A DNA stretch of 39,565 nt from Escherichia phage vB_EcoP_ZX5, in the sequence record MW722083.1; one strand, given 5' to 3'. Position 1 is the stretch's first letter, and each line of letters starts with the position of its first letter. Position numbers and translations under genes: made by a program. Positions 1 to 22,433 of the stretch are shown one piece after another. Below the pieces are notes generated by a model. That model was not told the DNA's origin, ran no database searches, and saw only the letters and a list, made by a program, of their open reading frames with translations.

Positions 1-61
1 AGGCCTGAGTTGAAGCTACCAGAGACAACAAAACGAACAGTGCAGCAAATGCTTTTTTCAT
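1..61 (-). CDS. 5' end of a small secreted-protein ORF (signal peptide MKKAFAALFVLLSLVASTQA); runs off the left edge and is in frame with 39465..39565 if the window is circular
   Basis: ATG at 61..59 on the minus strand; KK n-region, hydrophobic core and A-x-A type cleavage motif; weak Shine-Dalgarno. Confidence 0.3.
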   Translation of the reverse strand, partial: MKKAFAALFVLLSLVASTQA

Positions 62-130
62 TGTGAAATTTCCATCTATAAGCCACCTCAATGTGGCGTC
101 AATGAGTGTAGCACTGACTTTTGTTTCGTC

Positions 131-165
131 CATAAAAAAGCCCTCAGTGCGGGCTTACTTTTCTT
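131..165 (-). terminator. intrinsic terminator closing the leftward ant/accessory operon
   Basis: 6-bp stem 138-143/151-156 with 7-nt loop; A-run 134-139 gives a U-run on the minus strand; overlaps the stop codon of 155..703. Confidence 0.5.
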
Positions 166-703
166 CAGGTTTGTTGTCTTCAGATTTCTTCTTGATGCTT
201 GGTTTTTGTCTAAGAACGAAAATACCAGCCACTGCAACAACTGTACCGATCACTGTGCCAGCTAGAACTTCATGACCTGTTAAACCTAATAATGTTGCAC
301 AAGCTACTGTAAAAATAGTTGCACTCAGGCCAAACCGCTGCCCACGTTTATCTCTATTAATAGCCCCGTCAAGTGCCTTTTCCTCCATTTTCTGGCGGTG
401 AGCAAACTCCTTCTCCGTCAGCTGGAAGATGCGTTCGGGGGCATCAGGTAAAATATCCTGATACCCGCGAAGCAGATAGGGGGGAGGAAGCGGACCCTGA
501 AACGCATGGTGAGCGACAACTATCTCCTGAATTTCAGGGCGATCAAGAACTCTTGTGAAGGCATCTGGGTGTTGAATGATCTCGTTACTTAGCCCTTCCT
601 CAACTTCCTCGAACTCAGTTTCTTCGTTATCACTTGGTTGCCCAATAGATTTTTGCATATTTGTCGAAGGACATTCCTTTAGCTTCTGGTTTTCCTCTTG
701 CAT
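155..703 (-). CDS. membrane protein, DUF2335-like (acidic N-terminus, GPLPPPYLLRGYQDILPDAPERI motif, two C-terminal TM helices)
   Basis: 182-aa ORF; SD-like AGGGAA upstream of ATG 703; motif recalled from DUF2335, not searched; start at internal Met 658 is possible. Confidence 0.55.
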   Translation of the reverse strand: MQEENQKLKECPSTNMQKSIGQPSDNEETEFEEVEEGLSNEIIQHPDAFTRVLDRPEIQEIVVAHHAFQGPLPPPYLLRGYQDILPDAPERIFQLTEKEFAHRQKMEEKALDGAINRDKRGQRFGLSATIFTVACATLLGLTGHEVLAGTVIGTVVAVAGIFVLRQKPSIKKKSEDNKPEEK

Positions 704-956
704 TTGAGTTTTTCCCTGTCACTATTGCCCATTTTCCGCCAGCAGGCGCTGCAATTTTTTTTCCGTTCTTTACTATATATTCAGCATAAACACGATTTTC
801 TGACCGTCTGAGATCGTCTCCGACCATATTCATGTCTCTTGATATAACTTTGACGACAGAGTCTCGGTTTAAAGCCTTGGCATAGTTGGAGCCAGGAACG
901 ATACCCAAAGGGGTGCCAGACTCTATAGCCAGCTCCTTGACATATCTTCTGCTCAT
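630..956 (-). CDS. small basic hypothetical protein, first gene of a two-gene cassette
   Basis: 108-aa ORF from ATG 956 with GAGG SD 5 nt upstream; the track's longer start at 971 is TTG; overlaps the downstream gene by 74 nt. Confidence 0.5.
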   Translation of the reverse strand: MSRRYVKELAIESGTPLGIVPGSNYAKALNRDSVVKVISRDMNMVGDDLRRSENRVYAEYIVKNGKKIAAPAGGKWAIVTGKNSNARGKPEAKGMSFDKYAKIYWATK

Positions 957-977
957 ATGAACCTCAACCAATCGACT

Positions 978-992
978 TTACCAATCGGGTAA
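978..992. promoter_or_regulatory. palindromic operator-like site TTACCAATCGGGTAA upstream of the 630..956 cassette
   Basis: perfect TTACC-N5-GGTAA match between ant stop and cassette start. Confidence 0.45.
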
Positions 993-1077
993 TTTTAAAC
1001 ATGAGTATAATGCTTTTAACTGCAACGAGTGTAAACAATTATTGATAATTGTAGGCACATCCATGTGCCGCCGCTCG

Positions 1078-1773
1078 TCAGAAGAACCCTGCTTTGTCGT
1101 TGATGTACTCCGCGTGCGTCTGGATATCACGCAGGCATTTGCTCACACCGACGATGTAGCAGAACATGGTGGTCAGCTCCGCCGCCGCGCCCGATACGTC
1201 GTGCCCGTCTTCCTGTAACTGGTTCAGCAGATTCATCAGCAGTGAGTTCTCCGTCAGGCCGAGAACACCAGACGGCGAATGAATCAGGCTGCGGTAGCCG
1301 GGCTTCAGCGGGGCGCTGTAGGTTTTGTTCTCTATCTTCATCGCCTGCATTACTGCTGACGCCGTGGCGTTGGCTACCTGGTCGGCAACCATCTTTATGC
1401 GTTCTTCCTGCGGGAGCGAGTTTTTAATGTAACTTCCGGTGCGGCGGATCTGAGGAAGAACCTCACCTGTAACCCATTTACGAAAGCGGTAGGGGATAGT
1501 GCCTGGTGTCACTGCGTCGCGGCAGCGGAGGATCAGTGTGTAGAGGCCTGACTCGGAGATGATGATCGATTCTTGCTCACCGCCAGGGGTGTCGGTTGAA
1601 GCGACGCCCTTCTCATCATCATCAAGTTTTCGAACAGCATCTCGATGGTTTGCTATGCCTATAGCCCGACAAACATCTGAAGCGATAAACCATGGCTCAC
1701 CATTAATGACGATTACCCGTATATCGGCTTGGGATTCGAAAGAAAAAATGGACGTGCTTTTTGTAGCTGTCAT
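1078..1773 (-). CDS. ant: antirepressor (Bro-N type N-terminal domain plus Ant-type C-terminal domain)
   Basis: 231-aa ORF; N-terminus FSFESQADIRVIVINGEPWFIASDVCRAIG resembles Bro-N; AAGGTAA SD before ATG 1773. Confidence 0.8.
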   Translation of the reverse strand: MTATKSTSIFSFESQADIRVIVINGEPWFIASDVCRAIGIANHRDAVRKLDDDEKGVASTDTPGGEQESIIISESGLYTLILRCRDAVTPGTIPYRFRKWVTGEVLPQIRRTGSYIKNSLPQEERIKMVADQVANATASAVMQAMKIENKTYSAPLKPGYRSLIHSPSGVLGLTENSLLMNLLNQLQEDGHDVSGAAAELTTMFCYIVGVSKCLRDIQTHAEYINDKAGFF

Positions 1774-1929
1774 AGTGGTTACCTTTTAGTCTGGTTAATC
1801 ACCACTACCGACGCCAATCGGTTGGTGGTGAACTGTGCAGGGTTGGCGTAACCGGCTAAAAGGACCCGGCGCACCTTTCGGTGCCCCCACACAGCCCACC
1901 ATAATACGAATGTGGCCGTGCTATACGCA

Positions 1930-1950
1930 TAAAAAAACCGCTTGCGCGGT
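1930..1950 (-). terminator. weak intrinsic terminator or attenuator between the Ant-C paralog and ant
   Basis: 5-bp stem ACCGC/GCGGT 1937-1941/1946-1950; A7 run 1930-1936 gives U-run on minus strand. Confidence 0.3.
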
Positions 1951-2042
1951 GAATGCGCCTTTTAGTAATCCGGGACGCCAATCCCGGCACTGGATTTTGC
2001 CAGTGCTCGATTACTATGGCACAAGAGGAGTGCGTTGTAAAT

Positions 2043-2057
2043 TTACCGCAAAGGTAA
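2043..2057. promoter_or_regulatory. palindromic operator-like site TTACCGCAAAGGTAA upstream of ant
   Basis: perfect TTACC-N5-GGTAA match; extended near-palindrome AAATTTACC...GGTAAATAT. Confidence 0.45.
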
Positions 2058-2088
2058 ATATAAGCACTCCATTTGGTGATTGCAAACC

Positions 2089-2346
2089 TTATCTGGTTTG
2101 TTTTCGTAATTGTTCGGCACAATAGTCGAGATGTGTTTGCAGATCCTGCATAGACATCTGTGAGCTGGTGACGTAGTTAATCAGTGCAGTCAGTTCGGCA
2201 AGTGGGCCATCGACATTAAATCCATCCTTATCGAGATCCCGGAGTAATTTCATCAAGTGCGATCCCTCCACCAGTGACCTGACGCCTCCCGGCGTGTGAA
2301 TCCTTTCGGTAAATCCGTCTTCCAGTGGATAGTGATACTGCTGCAT
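2089..2346 (-). CDS. small protein paralogous to the C-terminal ~70 aa of the antirepressor
   Basis: 85 aa from internal ATG 2346 with GGAG SD; aligns by eye with Ant C-terminus (LMKLLRDLDKDGFNVDGPLAELT vs LMNLLNQLQEDGHDVSGAAAELT; DLQTHLDY vs DIQTHAEY); the track's longer start at 2469 would put an operator site inside the coding region. Confidence 0.5.
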   Translation of the reverse strand: MQQYHYPLEDGFTERIHTPGGVRSLVEGSHLMKLLRDLDKDGFNVDGPLAELTALINYVTSSQMSMQDLQTHLDYCAEQLRKQTR

Positions 2347-2422
2347 CTTATCTTCTCCATGCAATAACTGTATATTTATACAGTAGCAAATAATTTGTTT
2401 GCTATCCAGCACGTTTTGCAAA

Positions 2423-2437
2423 TTACCTGAAAGGTAA
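2423..2437. promoter_or_regulatory. palindromic operator-like site TTACCTGAAAGGTAA in the divergent region before the tailspike gene
   Basis: perfect match; 17-mer TTACCTGAAAGGTAATA identical to the copy at 22756. Confidence 0.45.
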
Positions 2438-2466
2438 TATCTATTCGTATTTACAGCCTTTCTATC

Positions 2467-2490
2467 CATATGTGGTTTTTCAGGTAATAG
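2467..2490 (+). promoter_or_regulatory. conserved promoter-proximal element CATATGTGGTTTTTCAGGTAATAG upstream of the tailspike gene
   Basis: 19 of 24 positions identical to 22812..22835 upstream of the head operon. Confidence 0.4.
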
Positions 2491-2541
2491 AATAACCAGA
2501 TATGCGGCGCAACGGGTGCTGCGACTATCTGGAGATTTAAC

Positions 2542-5500
2542 ATGACGGTCTCAACCGAAGTTGACCACAACGAATACACCGGTAACGGCGTTACGACATC
2601 GTTTCCGTATACTTTTCGAATTTTCAGAAAATCAGACCTGGTTGTTCAGGTGTCTGACCTGAACGGGAACGTAACAGAATTGGTTCTGGATACCGGTTAT
2701 ACGGTAACTGGGGCGGGCACTTATAGTGGCGGTTCTGTGGTTCTTCCGTCTCCGCTTGCTACTGGATGGCGAATTACGATAGATCGTGTGCTTGATGTAG
2801 TGCAGGAGACAGACCTTCGCAATCAGGGAAAATTTTTCCCCGAAGTGCATGAAGATGCCTTTGACTACCTGACGATGCTGATCCAGCAATGTTTTGGGTG
2901 GTTCAGACGTGCATTGATGAAACCATCTTTGCTTGCAAAATATTACGATGCAAAGCAAAACAAAATTTCTAACCTTGCAGATCCATCATTTGAGCAGGAC
3001 GCTGTAAATAATCGCTCAATGCGTAATTATGTCGATGCTGCAATCGCCGGGGTTGTTGGTGGTTTTGGTTGGTTTATTCAGTATGGTTCTGGGGCTGTGT
3101 ACCGAACGTTCCAGGATAAAATGCGTGATGCTATTAGCCCCAAAGATTTTGGAGCTGTTGGTGATGGTATAAATGACGATTCCACTGCAATAAGCGCGTG
3201 CCTTGAAGCCTCATCTCCAGGTTATAAAATTGACGGATTAGGGCTTACTTTTAAAGTATCAACTCTTCCGGATGTCAGTCGATTTAAAAATGCTCGTTTT
3301 TTATTTGAGAGAATACCGGGCCAGCCTCTTTTTTATGCTTCTGAAGATTTTATCCAGGGAGAGTTATTTAAAATTACAGATACACCGTGGTACAACGCCT
3401 GGACGCAGGATAAAACGTTTGTATATGACAATGTCATCTATGCGCCTTTTATGGCTGGAGACCGCCATGGTGTAAATAACCTCCATGTTGCATGGGTTCG
3501 CTCAGGAGATGACGGGAAGACCTGGACAACGCCGGAATGGCTTACAGATTTACATGAAAACTATCCCACAGTTAACTATCACTGTATGAGTATGGGGGTT
3601 GTCAGAAATCGCCTTTTTGCTGTAATTGAGACGCGGACCGTGAGAGGAAATAAACTGCAGGTTGCAGAGTTGTGGGATCGCCCAATGAGTCGCAGCCTTC
3701 GCGTTTATGGTGGTATAACGAAAGCAGCAAATCAGCAAGTCGCTTATATTCGCATTACTGATCACGGATTATTTGCTGGTGATTTTGTCAACTTCTCAAA
3801 CTCTGGTGTTACAGGTGTTACCGGGAATATGACGGTGACTACTGTTATTGATAAAAATACTTTTACAGTTACGACGCAAAATACCCAGGATGTGGATCAG
3901 AATAACGAGGGTAGATACTGGAGTTTTGGTACATCATTTCACTCGTCACCATGGAGAAAAACCAGTCTTGGAACTATTCCTTCTTTTGTTGACGGAAGCA
4001 CTCCTGTTACTGAGATTCACAGTTTTGCGACGATTAGCGATAACAGTTTTGCTGTTGGCTACCATAATGGTGATATTGGTCCACGCGAGCTTGGGATACT
4101 CTATTTCTCTGATGCTTTCGGTTCTCCTGGTAGCTTTGTTCGCAGACGCATACCTGCAGAATATGAGGCGAATGCATCTGAGCCATGTGTAAAATATTAT
4201 GATGGCATTCTGTATCTGACGACCAGGGGGACATTAAGTACTCAACCCGGTAGTTCATTGCACAGAAGCTCTGATTTAGGTACATCATGGAATTCTCTTC
4301 GCTTCCCAAATAATGTTCATCACTCAAACCTTCCTTTTGCCAAAGTTGGCGATGAGCTGATTATTTTTGGCAGTGAGCGCGCATTTGGTGAGTGGGAAGG
4401 AGGAGAACCTGATAACCGTTATGCAGGAAATTATCCAAGAACATTTATGACCAGAGTTAACGTCAATGAGTGGAGTCTGGATAATGTAGAGTGGGTTAAT
4501 GTTACTGATCAGATTTATCAGGGCGGAATAGTTAACTCTGCGGTTGGTGTTGGTTCAGTTTGTATCAAAGACAACTGGCTGTACTACATTTTCGGTGGGG
4601 AAGACTTTCTAAACCCATGGAGCATAGGGGATAACAACAGAAAATATCCTTATGTTCACGATGGTCACCCGGCTGATTTGTATTGTTTCAGGGTGAAAAT
4701 TAAACAGGAAGAATTTGTTTCAAGGGATTTTGTCTACGGAGCCACTCCTAACAGAACGCTTCCTACTTTTATGTCGACGTCAGGCGTGAGGACGGTTCCT
4801 GTACCCGTTGATTTCACAGATGATGTTGCCGTCCAGTCACTGACTGTCCATGCAGGTACATCAGGACAAGTTCGCGCGGAAGTCAAACTTGAGGGTAATT
4901 ACGCCATTATTGCGAAGAAAGTACCGTCTGATGATGTTACCGCTCAGAGATTAATCGTTAGCGGCGGTGAAACAACGTCTTCAGCAGATGGTGCAATGAT
5001 AACGTTGCATGGTTCCGGAAGCAGTACTCCACGTCGCGCGGTATATAACGCACTCGAACATCTTTTTGAGAACGGAGATGTTAAACCTTATCTTGATAAT
5101 GTAAATGCTCTTGGTGGTCCGGGAAACAGGTTCTCGACAGTTTATCTTGGCTCCAATCCTGTGGTTACCAGTGACGGAACATTAAAGACAGAGCCGGTCT
5201 CTCCTGACGAAGCATTGCTGGATGCCTGGGGTGACGTCAGGTATATCGCTTATAAATGGCTGAACGCTGTCGCTATAAAGGGGGAAGAAGGGGCGAGGAT
5301 ACATCATGGTGTAATCGCGCAGCAACTTCGTGATGTTCTTATTTCTCACGGACTCATGGAAGAAGAAAGCACAACATGCCGCTATGCCTTTCTTTGCTAT
5401 GACGATTATCCCGCAGTATATGATGACGTCATTACTGGCCAAAGGGAAATGCCGCTGACTGATAATGACGGGAGCATCATTGTTGATGAGGATGATAATC

Positions 5501-5661
5501 CAGTGATGGTAATGGAAGACATCATTGAGCGCGTTGAAATAACGCCAGCAGGATCTAGATGGGGGGTCAGACCTGATCTCTTATTCTATATCGAGGCAGC
5601 ATGGCAGCGCAGAGAAATGGATAAGATAAAAGAGCGGATTCAGTCTCTGGAAGAACGTTAA
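2542..5661 (+). CDS. tailspike: T7 gp17-like N-terminal anchor, pectate-lyase-like beta-helix signature, C-terminal S74-type intramolecular chaperone domain
   Basis: 1039-aa ORF with GGAGA SD; N-terminus GNGVTTSFPYTFRIFRKSDLVVQV; central DFGAVGDGINDDSTAI motif; C-terminal chaperone-like block. Confidence 0.85.
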   Translation: MTVSTEVDHNEYTGNGVTTSFPYTFRIFRKSDLVVQVSDLNGNVTELVLDTGYTVTGAGTYSGGSVVLPSPLATGWRITIDRVLDVVQETDLRNQGKFFPEVHEDAFDYLTMLIQQCFGWFRRALMKPSLLAKYYDAKQNKISNLADPSFEQDAVNNRSMRNYVDAAIAGVVGGFGWFIQYGSGAVYRTFQDKMRDAISPKDFGAVGDGINDDSTAISACLEASSPGYKIDGLGLTFKVSTLPDVSRFKNARFLFERIPGQPLFYASEDFIQGELFKITDTPWYNAWTQDKTFVYDNVIYAPFMAGDRHGVNNLHVAWVRSGDDGKTWTTPEWLTDLHENYPTVNYHCMSMGVVRNRLFAVIETRTVRGNKLQVAELWDRPMSRSLRVYGGITKAANQQVAYIRITDHGLFAGDFVNFSNSGVTGVTGNMTVTTVIDKNTFTVTTQNTQDVDQNNEGRYWSFGTSFHSSPWRKTSLGTIPSFVDGSTPVTEIHSFATISDNSFAVGYHNGDIGPRELGILYFSDAFGSPGSFVRRRIPAEYEANASEPCVKYYDGILYLTTRGTLSTQPGSSLHRSSDLGTSWNSLRFPNNVHHSNLPFAKVGDELIIFGSERAFGEWEGGEPDNRYAGNYPRTFMTRVNVNEWSLDNVEWVNVTDQIYQGGIVNSAVGVGSVCIKDNWLYYIFGGEDFLNPWSIGDNNRKYPYVHDGHPADLYCFRVKIKQEEFVSRDFVYGATPNRTLPTFMSTSGVRTVPVPVDFTDDVAVQSLTVHAGTSGQVRAEVKLEGNYAIIAKKVPSDDVTAQRLIVSGGETTSSADGAMITLHGSGSSTPRRAVYNALEHLFENGDVKPYLDNVNALGGPGNRFSTVYLGSNPVVTSDGTLKTEPVSPDEALLDAWGDVRYIAYKWLNAVAIKGEEGARIHHGVIAQQLRDVLISHGLMEEESTTCRYAFLCYDDYPAVYDDVITGQREMPLTDNDGSIIVDEDDNPVMVMEDIIERVEITPAGSRWGVRPDLLFYIEAAWQRREMDKIKERIQSLEER

Positions 5662-5687
5662 AAAAAAGCCCGCAATATTTTGCGGGT
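5661..5687. terminator. hairpin just after the tailspike stop (terminator-like; U-tract better on minus strand)
   Basis: 7-bp stem 5669-5675/5680-5686, loop TATT, preceded by A7. Confidence 0.4.
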
Positions 5688-5967
5688 ATCAAAAACGGAG
5701 TTGGTGAAAAGTTATCTTTGAATTCTATCATGAATCAGTACGTATTTTAAATACATGTTCAGGTTTATTACACCATAGCATTATTAAATACAAAATTAAG
5801 TCTATGGTTCCTGTACAACTGCCCCCACTCTGCTGGCTCGTTCTGTAAAATCATTAGTACTTTTATTGAGATATATGATATGGAACAATAATGATTCATA
5901 TATGGTTTACTATGCGGGTTTAGTCATCAATAATTGACTGGCTTATAGATAGTAAACAGGAGAAAGT

Positions 5968-6372
5968 ATGTCTGCTCAAGTAACAAGTGAGCAATTAAAT
6001 CAGTTGCTTAGTTTTGGTTCTCTTGCTGCGGTTATTGCAGGTGTCCCTCCGGAGGTTGCTTTAGGGGCTTTGGCTGGGGCGGTAATTTTTGTTACCTCTG
6101 CAGTAGAGTACCCCATCCGTCGCCGGGTGCTCCTGTCGATGCTCAGCTTTCTTTGCGGCCTTCTCTTTTACAAACCAGCAGCATCAATTCTTATCGGCAT
6201 AGCCAGCCTGATCCCTACCATCACGCAGGACTCTTTTGAAAAAGGGATTGTTTTCTCTGCAGGCGCATTCGTGTCAGCAATTGTCGCTGTGCGTATTGGT
6301 ATATGGCTCTATCACCGTTCCGATAATCCACGCGAGTTAATTCCGGGGAGAAAAGACGATGGTAACGCATGA
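5968..6372 (+). CDS. holin-like membrane protein (about 4 TM segments)
   Basis: 134-aa hydrophobic ORF with GGAGAAAG SD, immediately before the endolysin. Confidence 0.6.
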   Translation: MSAQVTSEQLNQLLSFGSLAAVIAGVPPEVALGALAGAVIFVTSAVEYPIRRRVLLSMLSFLCGLLFYKPAASILIGIASLIPTITQDSFEKGIVFSAGAFVSAIVAVRIGIWLYHRSDNPRELIPGRKDDGNA

Positions 6373-13181: not shown

Positions 13182-13766
13182 TTATTGTTTGTTTTTTTCG
13201 TTCTGGTTGATGACAAATTCAATGTAACTTTCGATCTTTGCTTTCTCGGTTTCGGGTAACAATGCGTAGCGCGAGCGGTCATAGTTGATGGTCGCAGGGT
13301 CGTGCGGGTGAATCAGTAATTCATAGCCGTGACGCCCGAATGCGGATGCAACATTCTCCAGGGTGGAAATGGAAACGCTGACCTCATTGTTTAACAGGCG
13401 ACTGATTGTCACCTGGGCGACGCCGGATGCGCGGTGAAGTTTTCCCTGCGTTGAAAGGTCGCGGCTTTCGCTCATCCAGCGTTCCAGGTTGTGAGCCGCC
13501 AGCTGACCTATATCGCTCGGGCCGACAGGCTGAAAACCTTCCTGAGAAAGCGAGCGATCGATATCAAGCCAGTTACGTGGTTTATTGGCGGCAGCTTCAA
13601 TTTTTCGCGCAACCTGGTCGCCGATAACCTTCTTGCCAAGAGCCCAGCGGTTTACCAGATTTGCCTGAGTTCCAAGTTTTTCTGCCATCCGCGTCTGAAC
13701 ACCATTGAATTCACGGTCGATCAAGTCGTTGAGATTTTGCCTGCGGACGTCCTGGATACTTTTCAT
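13182..13766 (-). CDS. repressor with two helix-turn-helix motifs (tandem HTH)
   Basis: 194 aa; HTH-like QTRMAEKLGTQANLVNRWALGKK and SGVAQVTISRLLNNEVSVSISTLENVASAF; divergent from the cro-like gene across an operator-rich spacer. Confidence 0.65.
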   Translation of the reverse strand: MKSIQDVRRQNLNDLIDREFNGVQTRMAEKLGTQANLVNRWALGKKVIGDQVARKIEAAANKPRNWLDIDRSLSQEGFQPVGPSDIGQLAAHNLERWMSESRDLSTQGKLHRASGVAQVTISRLLNNEVSVSISTLENVASAFGRHGYELLIHPHDPATINYDRSRYALLPETEKAKIESYIEFVINQNEKNKQ

Positions 13767-14299: not shown

Positions 14300-14512
14300 T
14301 TGAAGATAGTAACCAGAATGGAGGCCGCAAAAGCCGGGTTAAATCGCTATTTCACAGGAAAGCGGTGCCGTCACGGCCATCTCTCTGAAAGGTATGTTCT
14401 GAACGGAACATGTGTTGAATGTGCAATGAATAGCGCCAACCGCCATCGTAATGAATTTGCTTGTGCACTAAAGAGTGCAAGAGGGGAAACCTATGGCAAG
14501 CAGCTGGATTAA
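14300..14512 (+). CDS. small Cys/His-rich (zinc-ribbon-like) protein
   Basis: CRHGH...CVEC motif; start uncertain (TTG 14300 with AAGGGG SD, or ATG 14318). Confidence 0.4.
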   Translation: MKIVTRMEAAKAGLNRYFTGKRCRHGHLSERYVLNGTCVECAMNSANRHRNEFACALKSARGETYGKQLD

Positions 14513-15323
14513 GGTTGAAGTTATCACTCCTGATAAACCTGAAATTTTTCAGATAGCAGAAATTCTGGGTATTGATCCAGATGCTGTTCTTGGAAAGCTG
14601 GTTCGTATATGGGCATGGGCTGACCAGCAAACAATAGACGGTAACGCTGGCAGCGTTACAAAAGGAGTACTTGATAGACTCGCTTTTATTACAGGATTTG
14701 CTGACGCCCTCATTAGCGTCGGATGGCTTGCTTATCATGACGGCAAACTAATTCTTCCAAACTTTGAGCGACATAATGGAGAATCATCGAAAAAACGTGC
14801 ACTTACGAATAGAAGAGTGGCAGAGCATCGAAAACGAGTAACGCAAAAAGTAACGCCAACAGCGTTACAAAAGGAGTTACCAGAGGAAGAGGAAGAGGAA
14901 GATATATATAAAACCCCACACATAGCGCACGTGCGCGAGGGTGCTCCGACTAGTGAAGCGAACAGTACGCCGTTGCAGGTGGCAGAACCTGAATTTCTGG
15001 ATGGCCTGAGTGAACCCATCGGGAAATTTCCGATGACAGATGGCTGGCTACCGTCGCCAGATTTTCGGCGGCGTGCTGCGCTGTGGGGAACGGCCCTGCC
15101 GGAACCGGAATTTACACCTGCTGAACTTGCTGCATTCCGGGATTACTGGATGGCTGAGGGCAAAGTGTTCACGCAGGTTCAGTGGGAACAAAAATTCGCC
15201 AGGCACGTAAATCATATCAGGGGAAAATCAAAAAATGCCGGGAAAAGCGATGAGCTTGACTGGAATAACACTGACTGGATAGAAGGGGTGTGGGATGAAA
15301 TCAACTCCAGAACTTCTCAATGA
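14493..15323 (+). CDS. replication initiator (lambda O-like by position)
   Basis: 276 aa from ATG 14493 with GAGGGG SD; acidic linker (EEEEEE) overlying a repeat block; directly upstream of the P-like gene. Confidence 0.55.
   Translation: MASSWIKVEVITPDKPEIFQIAEILGIDPDAVLGKLVRIWAWADQQTIDGNAGSVTKGVLDRLAFITGFADALISVGWLAYHDGKLILPNFERHNGESSKKRALTNRRVAEHRKRVTQKVTPTALQKELPEEEEEEDIYKTPHIAHVREGAPTSEANSTPLQVAEPEFLDGLSEPIGKFPMTDGWLPSPDFRRRAALWGTALPEPEFTPAELAAFRDYWMAEGKVFTQVQWEQKFARHVNHIRGKSKNAGKSDELDWNNTDWIEGVWDEINSRTSQ
14838..14936. other. candidate origin of replication inside the O-like gene
   Basis: GTAACGC x2 at 14838 and 14850 plus inverted GCGTTAC 14862; (GAGGAA)3 14883-14900; AT-rich GATATATATAAAA 14901-14913; palindrome GCGCACGTGCGC 14925-14936. 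Confidence 0.35.
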
Positions 15324-22356: not shown

Positions 22357-22433
22357 TGGCGTGGCATGCAGGATTCGAACCTGCGACCAACCGCTTAGAA
22401 GGCGGTTGCTCTGTCCAGCTGAGCTAATGCCAC
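22357..22433 (-). tRNA. tRNA-Arg (anticodon UCU), CCA encoded
   Basis: 77 nt; acceptor GTGGCAT/ATGCCAC, D-arm GCTC...GAGC, anticodon arm ACCGC-CTTCTAA-GCGGT, T-arm GCAGG-TTCGAAT-CCTGC, discriminator G, CCA. Confidence 0.85.

Follow-up and report, generated by a model that had tools for sequence, protein, structure and literature searches.

Background

The antirepression system of Salmonella phage SPC32H, reportedly described by Kim & Ryu (2013, J Virol) and Kim et al. (2016, PNAS; PDB 5D50 and 5D4Z), is among the closest described counterparts of the locus considered here, the antirepressor genes of Escherichia phage vB_EcoP_ZX5. ZX5 DNA (sequence record MW722083.1; the window, the whole stretch that was analysed, is 39,565 bp long) is that of an epsilon15-like (Uetakevirus) temperate podophage. 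Papers that cite the SPC32H work state that self-cleavage of LexA leads to synthesis of the antirepressor Ant, which inhibits the repressor by protein-protein contact (PMC7380047), that Ant is a tetramer and inactivates the repressor, Rep, by direct binding (PMC9638917), and that the C-terminal tetramerisation domain of Rep is its Ant-binding domain (PMC9986798). Binding of Ant to this domain reportedly breaks up the Rep tetramer on DNA. We examined the 696-bp region of ZX5 at 1774..2469, which holds a small open reading frame (ORF), ORF6, and a 315-bp spacer that separates it from the long antirepressor gene, ORF4. The original prediction, made from the sequence letters, read ORF6 as a stand-alone copy of the Ant C-terminal domain and the spacer as a structured element reminiscent of immI of phage P22.

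Antirepressor genes of other phages are under RNA control. The immI region of P1 and P7 (c4-icd-ant1/2) holds a c4 antisense RNA operon, reportedly characterised by Citron & Schuster in 1990, and mature C4 is said, in work by Hartmann et al. from 1995, to be freed from the P1/P7 operon transcript by RNase P processing. To our knowledge, the two antirepressors of P1 are not paralogs. In P1, ant is under double repression, by C1 acting at the operon promoter and by the C4 antisense RNA (PMC8198154). In the isrK-orf45/STnc1160-anrP locus of Gifsy-1 the read-through transcript is translationally silent and the short IsrK RNA activates (Hershko-Shalev et al. 2016, PMC4825925), the key mutations being IsrK G28A/G31A and their partners C162U/C159U (PMC4825925).

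In the published description of ZX5, Table S2 lists ORF4 (1773..1078) as 'anti-repressor', ORF5 (1892..1779) as 'ash family protein', which is also its GenBank label, and ORF6 (2346..2089) as 'hypothetical protein' (PMC9782041). The authors tested the long Ant, ORF4, only, and it is the sole protein named antirepressor there (PMC9782041). Our analysis makes it probable that ZX5 carries two antirepressor modules that target one Rep: module A, with ORF6, controlled by LexA, and module B, with ORF4, controlled by RNA in the manner of P1 immI and Gifsy-1 isrK. The homologies, motifs, RNA structures and covariation were computed here, and published work on relatives is the source for the binding of Ant to Rep, the dependence on LexA and the mechanisms of C4 and IsrK.

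The small antirepressor gene

The features of module A and its surroundings are:

2089..2346, minus strand: small antirepressor gene ORF6, 85 aa, ortholog of SPC32H Ant; ribosome-binding site GGAG at 2358..2355
2366..2385, minus strand: LexA (SOS) box TACTGTATAAATATACAGTT, with 19 nt between its 3' end and the ORF6 ATG
2423..2437, no strand: operator-type palindrome upstream of small ant, in the divergent region with the tailspike gene; kept in 5 epsilon15-like phages
2542..5661, plus strand: K1 endosialidase tailspike gene

The resemblance of ORF6 to the C-terminal part of Ant, originally put at roughly 40-45% by eye, was borne out by pairwise alignment: residues 2-75 of the ORF6 product correspond to residues 150-223 of the long Ant in an ungapped alignment, with 31 of 74 positions identical (42%; BLASTP E=8e-16), and 18 columns are invariant in both paralog classes across 12 sequences. 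The protein was identified through a PDB sequence search and PHROGs; its residues 2-84 match PDB chain 5D50_E, 'Anti-repressor protein', with E=4.1e-47, while Pfam returned only DUF724, far under cut-off, and NCBIfam no match. ORF6 is 88% identical to the annotated SPC32H 'ant' product, whose crystallised form has 86 aa (PDB 5D50, in complex with the repressor). It lies in antisense orientation, with the end of the block of virion genes on one side and the tailspike gene on the other, a layout found also in SPC32H, phiV10, Tyrion and a Klebsiella phage (ST11-OXA245phi3.2), and SPC32H shares its position, orientation, LexA box and upstream palindrome as well as a homologous Rep (E=4e-42). However, Rep has diverged far more than Ant between these two phages, and SPC32H has neither a second, Bro-N-fused Ant nor isrK and C4 downstream of ant. 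Both SPC32H and epsilon15 have the small Ant and lack the long one.

ORF6 is under strong purifying selection, with a ratio of nonsynonymous to synonymous substitution (dN/dS) of 0.07-0.08 against SPC32H and Tyrion. A search at E<=0.001 returned 136 homologs from Enterobacteriaceae genomes and metagenomes, most of them named 'hypothetical protein', and those of full length are mostly 85-86 aa long. The small Ant is the conserved member of the antirepressor pair, and we rejected an origin as a pseudogene or remnant in view of the dN/dS of 0.07 and the full-length homologs of mostly 85-86 aa. The same frame stays open for 126 aa up to 2469, but we do not regard the longer version as the gene, because the additional 41 codons span the LexA box and the operator-type palindrome and the crystallised ortholog has 86 aa. 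Many gene calls in databases nevertheless take the ATG at 2469 as the start of small ant, with products of 126-127 aa (for example protein cluster P0003, with 833 members). Some small Ants, that of the Klebsiella phage (1795..2055 of its sequence) and protein P0115 among them, have DGHDVSGAAAEL, a motif seen mostly in the long paralog, where the small Ants of E. coli and Salmonella have DGFNVDGPLAEL; this could reflect gene conversion between the paralogs.

The putative LexA box TACTGTATAAATATACAGTT agrees at 18 of 20 positions with the LexA consensus, TACTGTATATATATACAGTA. Its CTGT-N8-ACAG core is invariant in all five phages aligned (ZX5, phiV10, SPC32H, Tyrion and the Klebsiella phage), and it is the only AT-rich site of this form in the whole window. 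The box lies between a -35-like TTGCTA (2389..2384) and the ribosome-binding site of small ant, and a candidate promoter TTGCTA-17-TATTGC was read by eye around the box. By analogy with SPC32H, small ant is predicted to be held off by LexA and switched on by DNA damage, and its product to form tetramers and dissociate Rep from DNA.

The long antirepressor

The long gene and its two domains are placed as follows:

1078..1773, minus strand: long Ant, ORF4, 231 aa; a Bro-N domain, a low-confidence helical linker and a C-terminal domain like SPC32H Ant
1453..1725, minus strand (aa 17-107): Bro-N domain (PF02498, 76.7 bits against a cut-off of 25.6)
1096..1326, minus strand (aa 150-226): C-terminal domain (5D50_E, E=1e-13)

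ORF4 orthologs are intact in Tyrion (75% identity) and the Klebsiella phage (65%), and Enterobacteriaceae have many full-length orthologs, 226-236 aa long. The C-terminal domain has a dN/dS of 0.25-0.28, so that both ant genes are under purifying selection. When ORF4 was overexpressed in ZX5, lysogens fell from 1e9 to 1e6 plaque-forming units (PFU)/mL and repressor mRNA went down by 75% (PMC9782041), a result that fits antirepressor activity. Because its C-terminal domain is a divergent version of the domain in module A, with about 40% identity, the long Ant most likely binds the same Rep.

The original prediction that ORF6 competes with or modulates Ant fared less well than the homology on which it was built. 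Under such a scheme the small protein would form mixed or dead-end oligomers with the long Ant, or would occupy Rep without inactivating it. The domains are homologous and share the 18 invariant positions, and since the SPC32H protein is described as tetrameric (PMC9638917), mixed tetramers are physically conceivable. Nevertheless, we consider competition very unlikely: in a phage without a long Ant the ortholog acts positively and suffices on its own as an antirepressor, and the small gene is the more conserved of the two (dN/dS 0.07 vs. 0.25) and has its own SOS control. Moreover, the paralogs have diverged to about 40% identity in all three lineages, and therefore separate homo-oligomers fit better; hetero-oligomers of ORF6 and ORF4 are not needed to explain the locus. 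What had been taken for a free domain copy is instead the ortholog of the characterised SPC32H antirepressor, with a LexA box, and the conserved member of the pair. A related idea, that the small Ant (the SOS input) and the long Ant (the Rep/C4-RNA input) co-assemble as mixed tetramers on Rep, with paralog stoichiometry setting the induction threshold, or that Bro-N recruits the Rep-Ant complex to a second target, strikes us as quite improbable. If it were true, the high spontaneous induction reported for ZX5 (1e7 PFU/mL) could reflect a leaky two-input device.

The spacer RNAs

The minus strand of the spacer holds two Rfam families in tandem, isrK followed by C4 antisense RNA. In the direction of transcription, with SD denoting the Shine-Dalgarno sequence, its features are:

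2043..2057, no strand: operator-type palindrome TTACCGCAAAGGTAA, abutting the -35 of the isrK/C4/ant promoter
2013..2041, minus strand: module B promoter from a promoter scan; -35 TTTACA 2041..2036, 17-nt spacer with TG, -10 CATAGT 2018..2013
1931..2006, minus strand: isrK-like leader or small RNA (RF01394, 77.9 bits against a gathering threshold of 50); two hairpins and an intrinsic terminator
1987..2006, minus strand: isrK hairpin 1
1981..1975, minus strand: b1 decoy, TTGGCGT, in the isrK leader
1965..1958, minus strand: a1 decoy, CTAAAAGG, in the isrK leader
1950..1931, minus strand: isrK terminator, stem ACCGCGCAAGCGGT and T7 run; called independently by a terminator scan
1821..1906, minus strand: C4-type antisense RNA (RF01695, 77.7 bits against a gathering threshold of 45; full-length, model positions 1-87)
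1902..1795, minus strand: upstream ORF of 35 aa, the Gifsy-1 orf45 equivalent; starts inside C4 and ends 21 nt before the ant AUG, no overlap
1863..1856, minus strand: C4 a', CCTTTTAG, also given as CCUUUUAG
1849..1843, minus strand: C4 b', ACGCCAA
1773..1817, minus strand: C4 target region at the ant translation start, with b2 and a2; hairpin 1807..1773 in the minimum free energy fold
1817..1811, minus strand: b2, TTGGCGT, in a hairpin loop
1789..1782, minus strand: a2, CTAAAAGG, including the ant SD AAGG; inside hairpin 1807..1773

Both RNAs are supported by covariation over 13 distinct loci, with compensatory changes at 7 of 17 pairs in isrK and 9 of 27 pairs in C4, which consists of a long closing stem and two inner hairpins. 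The C4 3' end CACCACCA is present in the sequence. The c4-a1b1 family (RF03163) at 2019..1967 scored 43.1 bits, just below its gathering threshold of 46.7 (E=1.4e-8), and the overlapping isrK model, which describes the same hairpins, passes. Folding of minus-strand 2006..1760 is better than that of shuffled sequences (z=-4.5), as is folding of the plus strand (z=-5.4), in line with the structured spacer that had been proposed. The individual elements foreseen from the letters also proved to be present and can now be named. The weak terminator at 1930..1950 is the 3' terminator hairpin of isrK, the stem-loop at 1985-2008 is isrK hairpin 1, that at 1868-1889 is the inner C4 hairpin (1871..1885), and that at 1797-1832 consists of the b2 hairpin and a CACCACC/GGTGGTG pairing downstream of C4.

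The a' and b' elements of C4 are exactly complementary both to a1 and b1 in the isrK leader and to a2 and b2 just upstream of ant, and the a'/a1/a2 and b'/b1/b2 sets co-vary over the 13 loci. The sets change together: Tyrion has AGACCAA with UUGGUCU twice, APSE has AUGCGAA with UUCGCAU twice, and a' differs in almost every phage. RNAduplex energies for whole C4 and target segments (-29.6 kcal/mol for the own locus vs. -22.0 kcal/mol for other loci) are dominated by hairpin stems and discriminate poorly; therefore, we used the longest Watson-Crick run of the a' loop, which averaged 7.2 nt with a1 and 8.0 nt with a2 of the same locus vs. 4.2 and 5.0 nt with those of other loci. A GGTGGTG a few nucleotides downstream of b2 is kept in all 14 loci (ZX5 1799..1832) and could pair with CACCACC in the 3' arm of the closing stem of C4 or, alternatively, with an ACCAC directly ahead of the ant start codon, which points to a possible conserved switch between alternative structures.

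The promoter TTTACA-17-CATAGT ends 6 nt ahead of isrK model position 1, with a putative transcription start near 2006. The Gifsy-1 and Stx-phage copies have their TTGAC-N17/18-TATATT promoters at the same position relative to isrK nucleotide 1, and the ZX5 promoter is preserved in Tyrion and in the Klebsiella phage, where the arrangement ATTACC-N5-GGTAAATTTACA is kept as well. Lambdoid isrK-C4 copies lack the operator palindrome; therefore, the epsilon15-like lineage appears to have placed the cassette under its own repressor. In phiV10 (3420..3480) another sequence stands in place of the -35 TTTACA of the isrK promoter, and the five central nucleotides of the operator are inverted relative to ZX5; module B seems to be decaying in this phage. 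The ZX5 palindrome at 2043..2057 is nested in a longer imperfect one, 2026..2070 (GGAGTGC...GCACTCC), which folds as RNA with z=-4.1 and has no U-run, and which could be a 3' stabiliser or weak stop of the small-ant transcript.

The spacer is currently annotated as protein-coding. ORF5, the 'ash family protein' of GenBank and the ZX5 paper (1892..1779, minus strand), is a 37-aa frame with a GTG start that lies wholly within the C4 RNA and its target region. That it is a real gene and the RNA structures incidental is barely credible, given two Rfam models about 30 bits over their thresholds, compensatory changes in the pairs, a 37-aa product with no NCBIfam match and frames through C4 that are not conserved. 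Most likely, an RNA gene has been misannotated as ORF5. The upstream ORF (1902..1795) varies in length between loci: it has 8, 15, 33, 35 or 45 aa or continues in frame into ant, and that of Tyrion, with 15 aa, ends 84 nt before ant. This variation in length and frame rules out a conserved coding equivalent of Gifsy-1 orf45, and for the same reason we regard the upstream ORF and ORF5 as by-products of the RNA gene.

The upstream ORF matters for how module B would work. In Gifsy-1, the tandem of isrK and C4 (STnc1160), the promoter position and the antirepressor-like gene that follows are as in ZX5, and IsrK G28/G31 and their partners C162/C159 match b1 and b' by position. Module B could therefore be silent through pairing of a1/b1 with a'/b' in cis and be activated in trans by short isrK through translation of the upstream ORF coupled to ant, a scheme that would replace C4 as a diffusible repressor of the P1 type. 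The shared layout, an upstream AUG at the same position in 14 of 14 loci and the experimental data from Gifsy-1 (PMC4825925) speak for it, and we hold it to be possible, if doubtful. However, the ORF is not conserved as a coding unit (8-45 aa or into ant, with a stop 84 nt before ant in Tyrion, counted here as the closest compared relative with an intact long Ant), the conserved AUG belongs to the C4 closing stem, and the ZX5 ORF stops 21 nt short of the ant AUG, whereas Gifsy-1 orf45 overlaps the anrP start by 4 nt. Furthermore, a2 directly covers the ant SD, so that direct occlusion by C4 would be sufficient. The Gifsy-1 promoter also lacks a Rep-type operator, and AnrP has no detectable homology to ZX5 Ant (BLASTP, E<=1e-3). 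By analogy, IsrK of ZX5 might bind Hfq and activate downstream translation in trans.

P1 and P7 have a homologous C4 (RF01695) whose a' and b' pair with a1/b1 upstream and with a2/b2 at the translation start. As is likely in ZX5, their operon promoter is also under the primary repressor, and ant acts as a secondary antirepressor beside a small primary one (Coi in P1). In contrast, ZX5 has no icd-type upstream ORF coupled to ant, only the single 35-aa frame inside C4 that varies in length and frame, and its a2 lies directly on the ant SD. The ZX5 Ant, with its Bro-N and SPC32H-type domains, is unrelated in architecture to Ant1/2, and the ZX5 leader has an isrK-type terminator.

The isrK-C4 tandem precedes antirepressor-type genes in phiV10, Tyrion, the Klebsiella phage, Stx phages, Gifsy-1, SfV, a Yersinia phage and APSE phages. 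APSE has isrK, C4 and then a Bro-N protein, with an upstream region matching a'/b' (PMC7313666), and APSE-7 records already annotate this layout; however, the Bro-N protein there has another C-terminal part, without a BLASTP match to either ZX5 Ant, and the LexA-controlled small paralog upstream is absent. By BLASTP, ORF4 has no detectable relationship to the Ants encoded behind isrK-C4 in Stx phages, Gifsy-1 and APSE. The cassette is portable: epsilon15-like, lambdoid/Stx, Gifsy-1 and APSE phages each have it joined to antirepressor genes that are unrelated to one another, and the C-terminal domain of ORF4 matches the resident repressor system. As to the proposed likeness to P22, RNA-level control of ant stands, and the comparison with P22 itself does not, the homology being to P1/P7 c4 and Gifsy-1 isrK. 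P22 immI (mnt-arc-ant-sar) also lies just upstream of the tailspike gene of a short-tailed temperate phage and controls ant by an antisense RNA, but orientation, RNA family and Ant family all differ. We found no sar match at E<=1 in 1..6000 and no Arc or Mnt Pfam domains in the flanking proteins, and the analogy with sar, arc and mnt was rejected.

Operators and Rep

The operator-like palindrome noted originally at 2043..2057 is indeed present and turned out to be one of 14 sites of a TTACC-N5-GGTAA family in ZX5 DNA (one mismatch allowed), against 0.59 expected; none of 100 shuffles reached 14. These 15-bp sites start at 978, 2043, 2423, 8026, 13048, 13110, 13822, 13870, 14207, 16109, 16171, 19625, 19643 and 22756. 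Four of them (13048, 13110, 13822 and 13870) flank rep:

13182..13766, minus strand: Rep, the cognate repressor (5D50_A 'Repressor', E=4e-42, residues 1-190)

Rep also matches the C-terminal fragment 5D4Z (E=4e-20), and the ZX5 repressor is 42% identical to that of epsilon15 (PMC9782041). Other sites precede int, the early operons, ORF3 and both ant modules. The whole genome of SPC32H has 18 sites against 0.48 expected, in equivalent places and clustered around rep, including three between rep and the divergent gene. The simplest reading of this distribution is that TTACC-N5-GGTAA is the Rep operator. Operator-type sites also stand before the small terminase gene and the portal region, and the scattered set resembles the dispersed C1 operators of P1 and suggests control of many promoters, those of the late region included, by Rep or another conserved factor.

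The operator at the module B promoter bears on a further explanation, in which module B takes no part in self-induction and serves during infection as a means of anti-immunity or cross-talk: the long Ant would act against the Rep of related prophages, or Bro-N would have another target, and C4 would provide secondary immunity of the P1 type. The annotators of phiV10 labelled the gene 'putative anti-immunity protein', a' is hypervariable between phages like a determinant of immunity specificity, module B is accessory (absent from SPC32H and epsilon15, frameshifted in phiV10), and trans-acting antirepressors are known (PMC3121763). However, a Rep-type operator at its promoter links module B to the phage's own switch, and overexpression of ORF4 altered ZX5's own lysogeny (PMC9782041). 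We judge this role unlikely as a replacement for self-induction, with which it would be compatible.

A two-module circuit

The elements described above can be assembled into a circuit, in which LexA, Rep and partner binding are all predicted, for module A and for the RNAs, by analogy with the relatives. Module B, from 2057 to 1078, would be a mobile cassette downstream of module A, made up of an operator-bearing promoter, the isrK leader with its terminator and a1/b1, C4, and the ant start with a2/b2 over the SD. In a lysogen, LexA would keep small ant off and Rep would sit on its operators, the module B promoter among them; stray module B transcripts would mostly end at the isrK terminator or be kept untranslated by C4 at a2/b2. 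Pairing of C4 with a2/b2 would block translation of the long Ant, and the isrK leader would relieve this block by soaking up C4.

Upon DNA damage, cleavage of LexA would allow small Ant to be made, Rep tetramers would leave the DNA, and the module B promoter would be derepressed. Read-through from module A may add to module B transcription, since no terminator was called between 2089 and 2007. Terminated isrK would then outnumber and titrate C4, so that the long Ant would be translated and reinforce the inactivation of Rep. As the long Ant would be both repressed by Rep and able to inactivate it, the two would form a double-negative loop that locks the lytic decision. For this particular feed-forward order of events we see about even chances.

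Several observations weigh against two modules acting in this way. The promoter scan called no small-ant promoter, and the -10 read by eye (TATTGC) is poor. The long Ant of phiV10 (2512..3191) is frameshifted after residue 181 and split into p23 and p22, so module B is dispensable. An AlphaFold2 (AF2) model of ORF4 from a 31-sequence alignment had predicted local distance difference test (pLDDT) values of 70-88 in the N-terminal domain and 38-70 in the linker and C-terminal domain, with 50-70 for the C-terminal domain; Foldseek against PDB returned nothing at E<=0.001, 5D50 included. Given this low-confidence model and the Foldseek null, we make no claim at the level of fold, and a shared fold of the two paralogs is a possibility suggested by their sequence homology. 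The assignment of the palindromes to Rep comes from their distribution. Finally, a module B promoter shut by Rep in lysogens would yield little C4, whose role would then lie mainly in infection or early induction. Lysogens of Gifsy-1 have constitutively high IsrK and STnc1160 (PMC7067206), so regulation in ZX5 may differ.

Genome setting

Some neighbouring features of the window deserve mention. ORF3 (630..956, minus strand, 108 aa) belongs to phrog_10654, which has no function assigned there, and has no Pfam match; an operator-type palindrome (978..992) lies directly upstream. It is followed by ORF2, a DUF2335 membrane protein classed by PHROGs as 'moron'. ORF3 and ORF2 may form a Rep-controlled accessory operon, and the ZX5 paper describes these genes as specific to ZX5 (PMC9782041). 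The block 2470..2541 upstream of the tailspike gene is kept in all five aligned phages, above all at 2484..2494, and contains ATTCTATTACC, which resembles an operator half-site; it may be the promoter or control region of the tailspike gene, which is divergent from the ant genes. ARAGORN and Rfam both detected a single tRNA, tRNA-Arg(tct), at 22357..22433 on the minus strand, where the ZX5 paper places the tRNA at complement 14482..14558 (PMC9782041).

Conclusions

All components of the locus belong to described families, and DNA almost identical to it is widespread: 281 of 5,426 complete E. coli genomes contain 80% or more of the 696-bp region, and among the 12 matches listed the annotated feature under the match, if any, is 'hypothetical protein' only. 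In the literature on epsilon15-like phages, SPC32H, C4 and isrK we found no paper linking an RNA-controlled long Ant to an SOS-controlled Ant. The assignments of ORF6 and of the RNAs in ZX5 and its relatives, and a long RNA-controlled Ant that bears a diverged copy of the SOS-controlled Ant, appear undescribed. They have corrective value, as the description of ZX5 lists an SPC32H-type Ant as 'hypothetical protein' and a C4 RNA as 'ash family protein'. Current concepts are left unchanged by the two modules. However, one Rep-binding domain under two controls, LexA on the one hand and, on the other, Rep together with an antisense RNA that has a decoy leader, would offer a tractable system for asking why temperate phages stack induction inputs.

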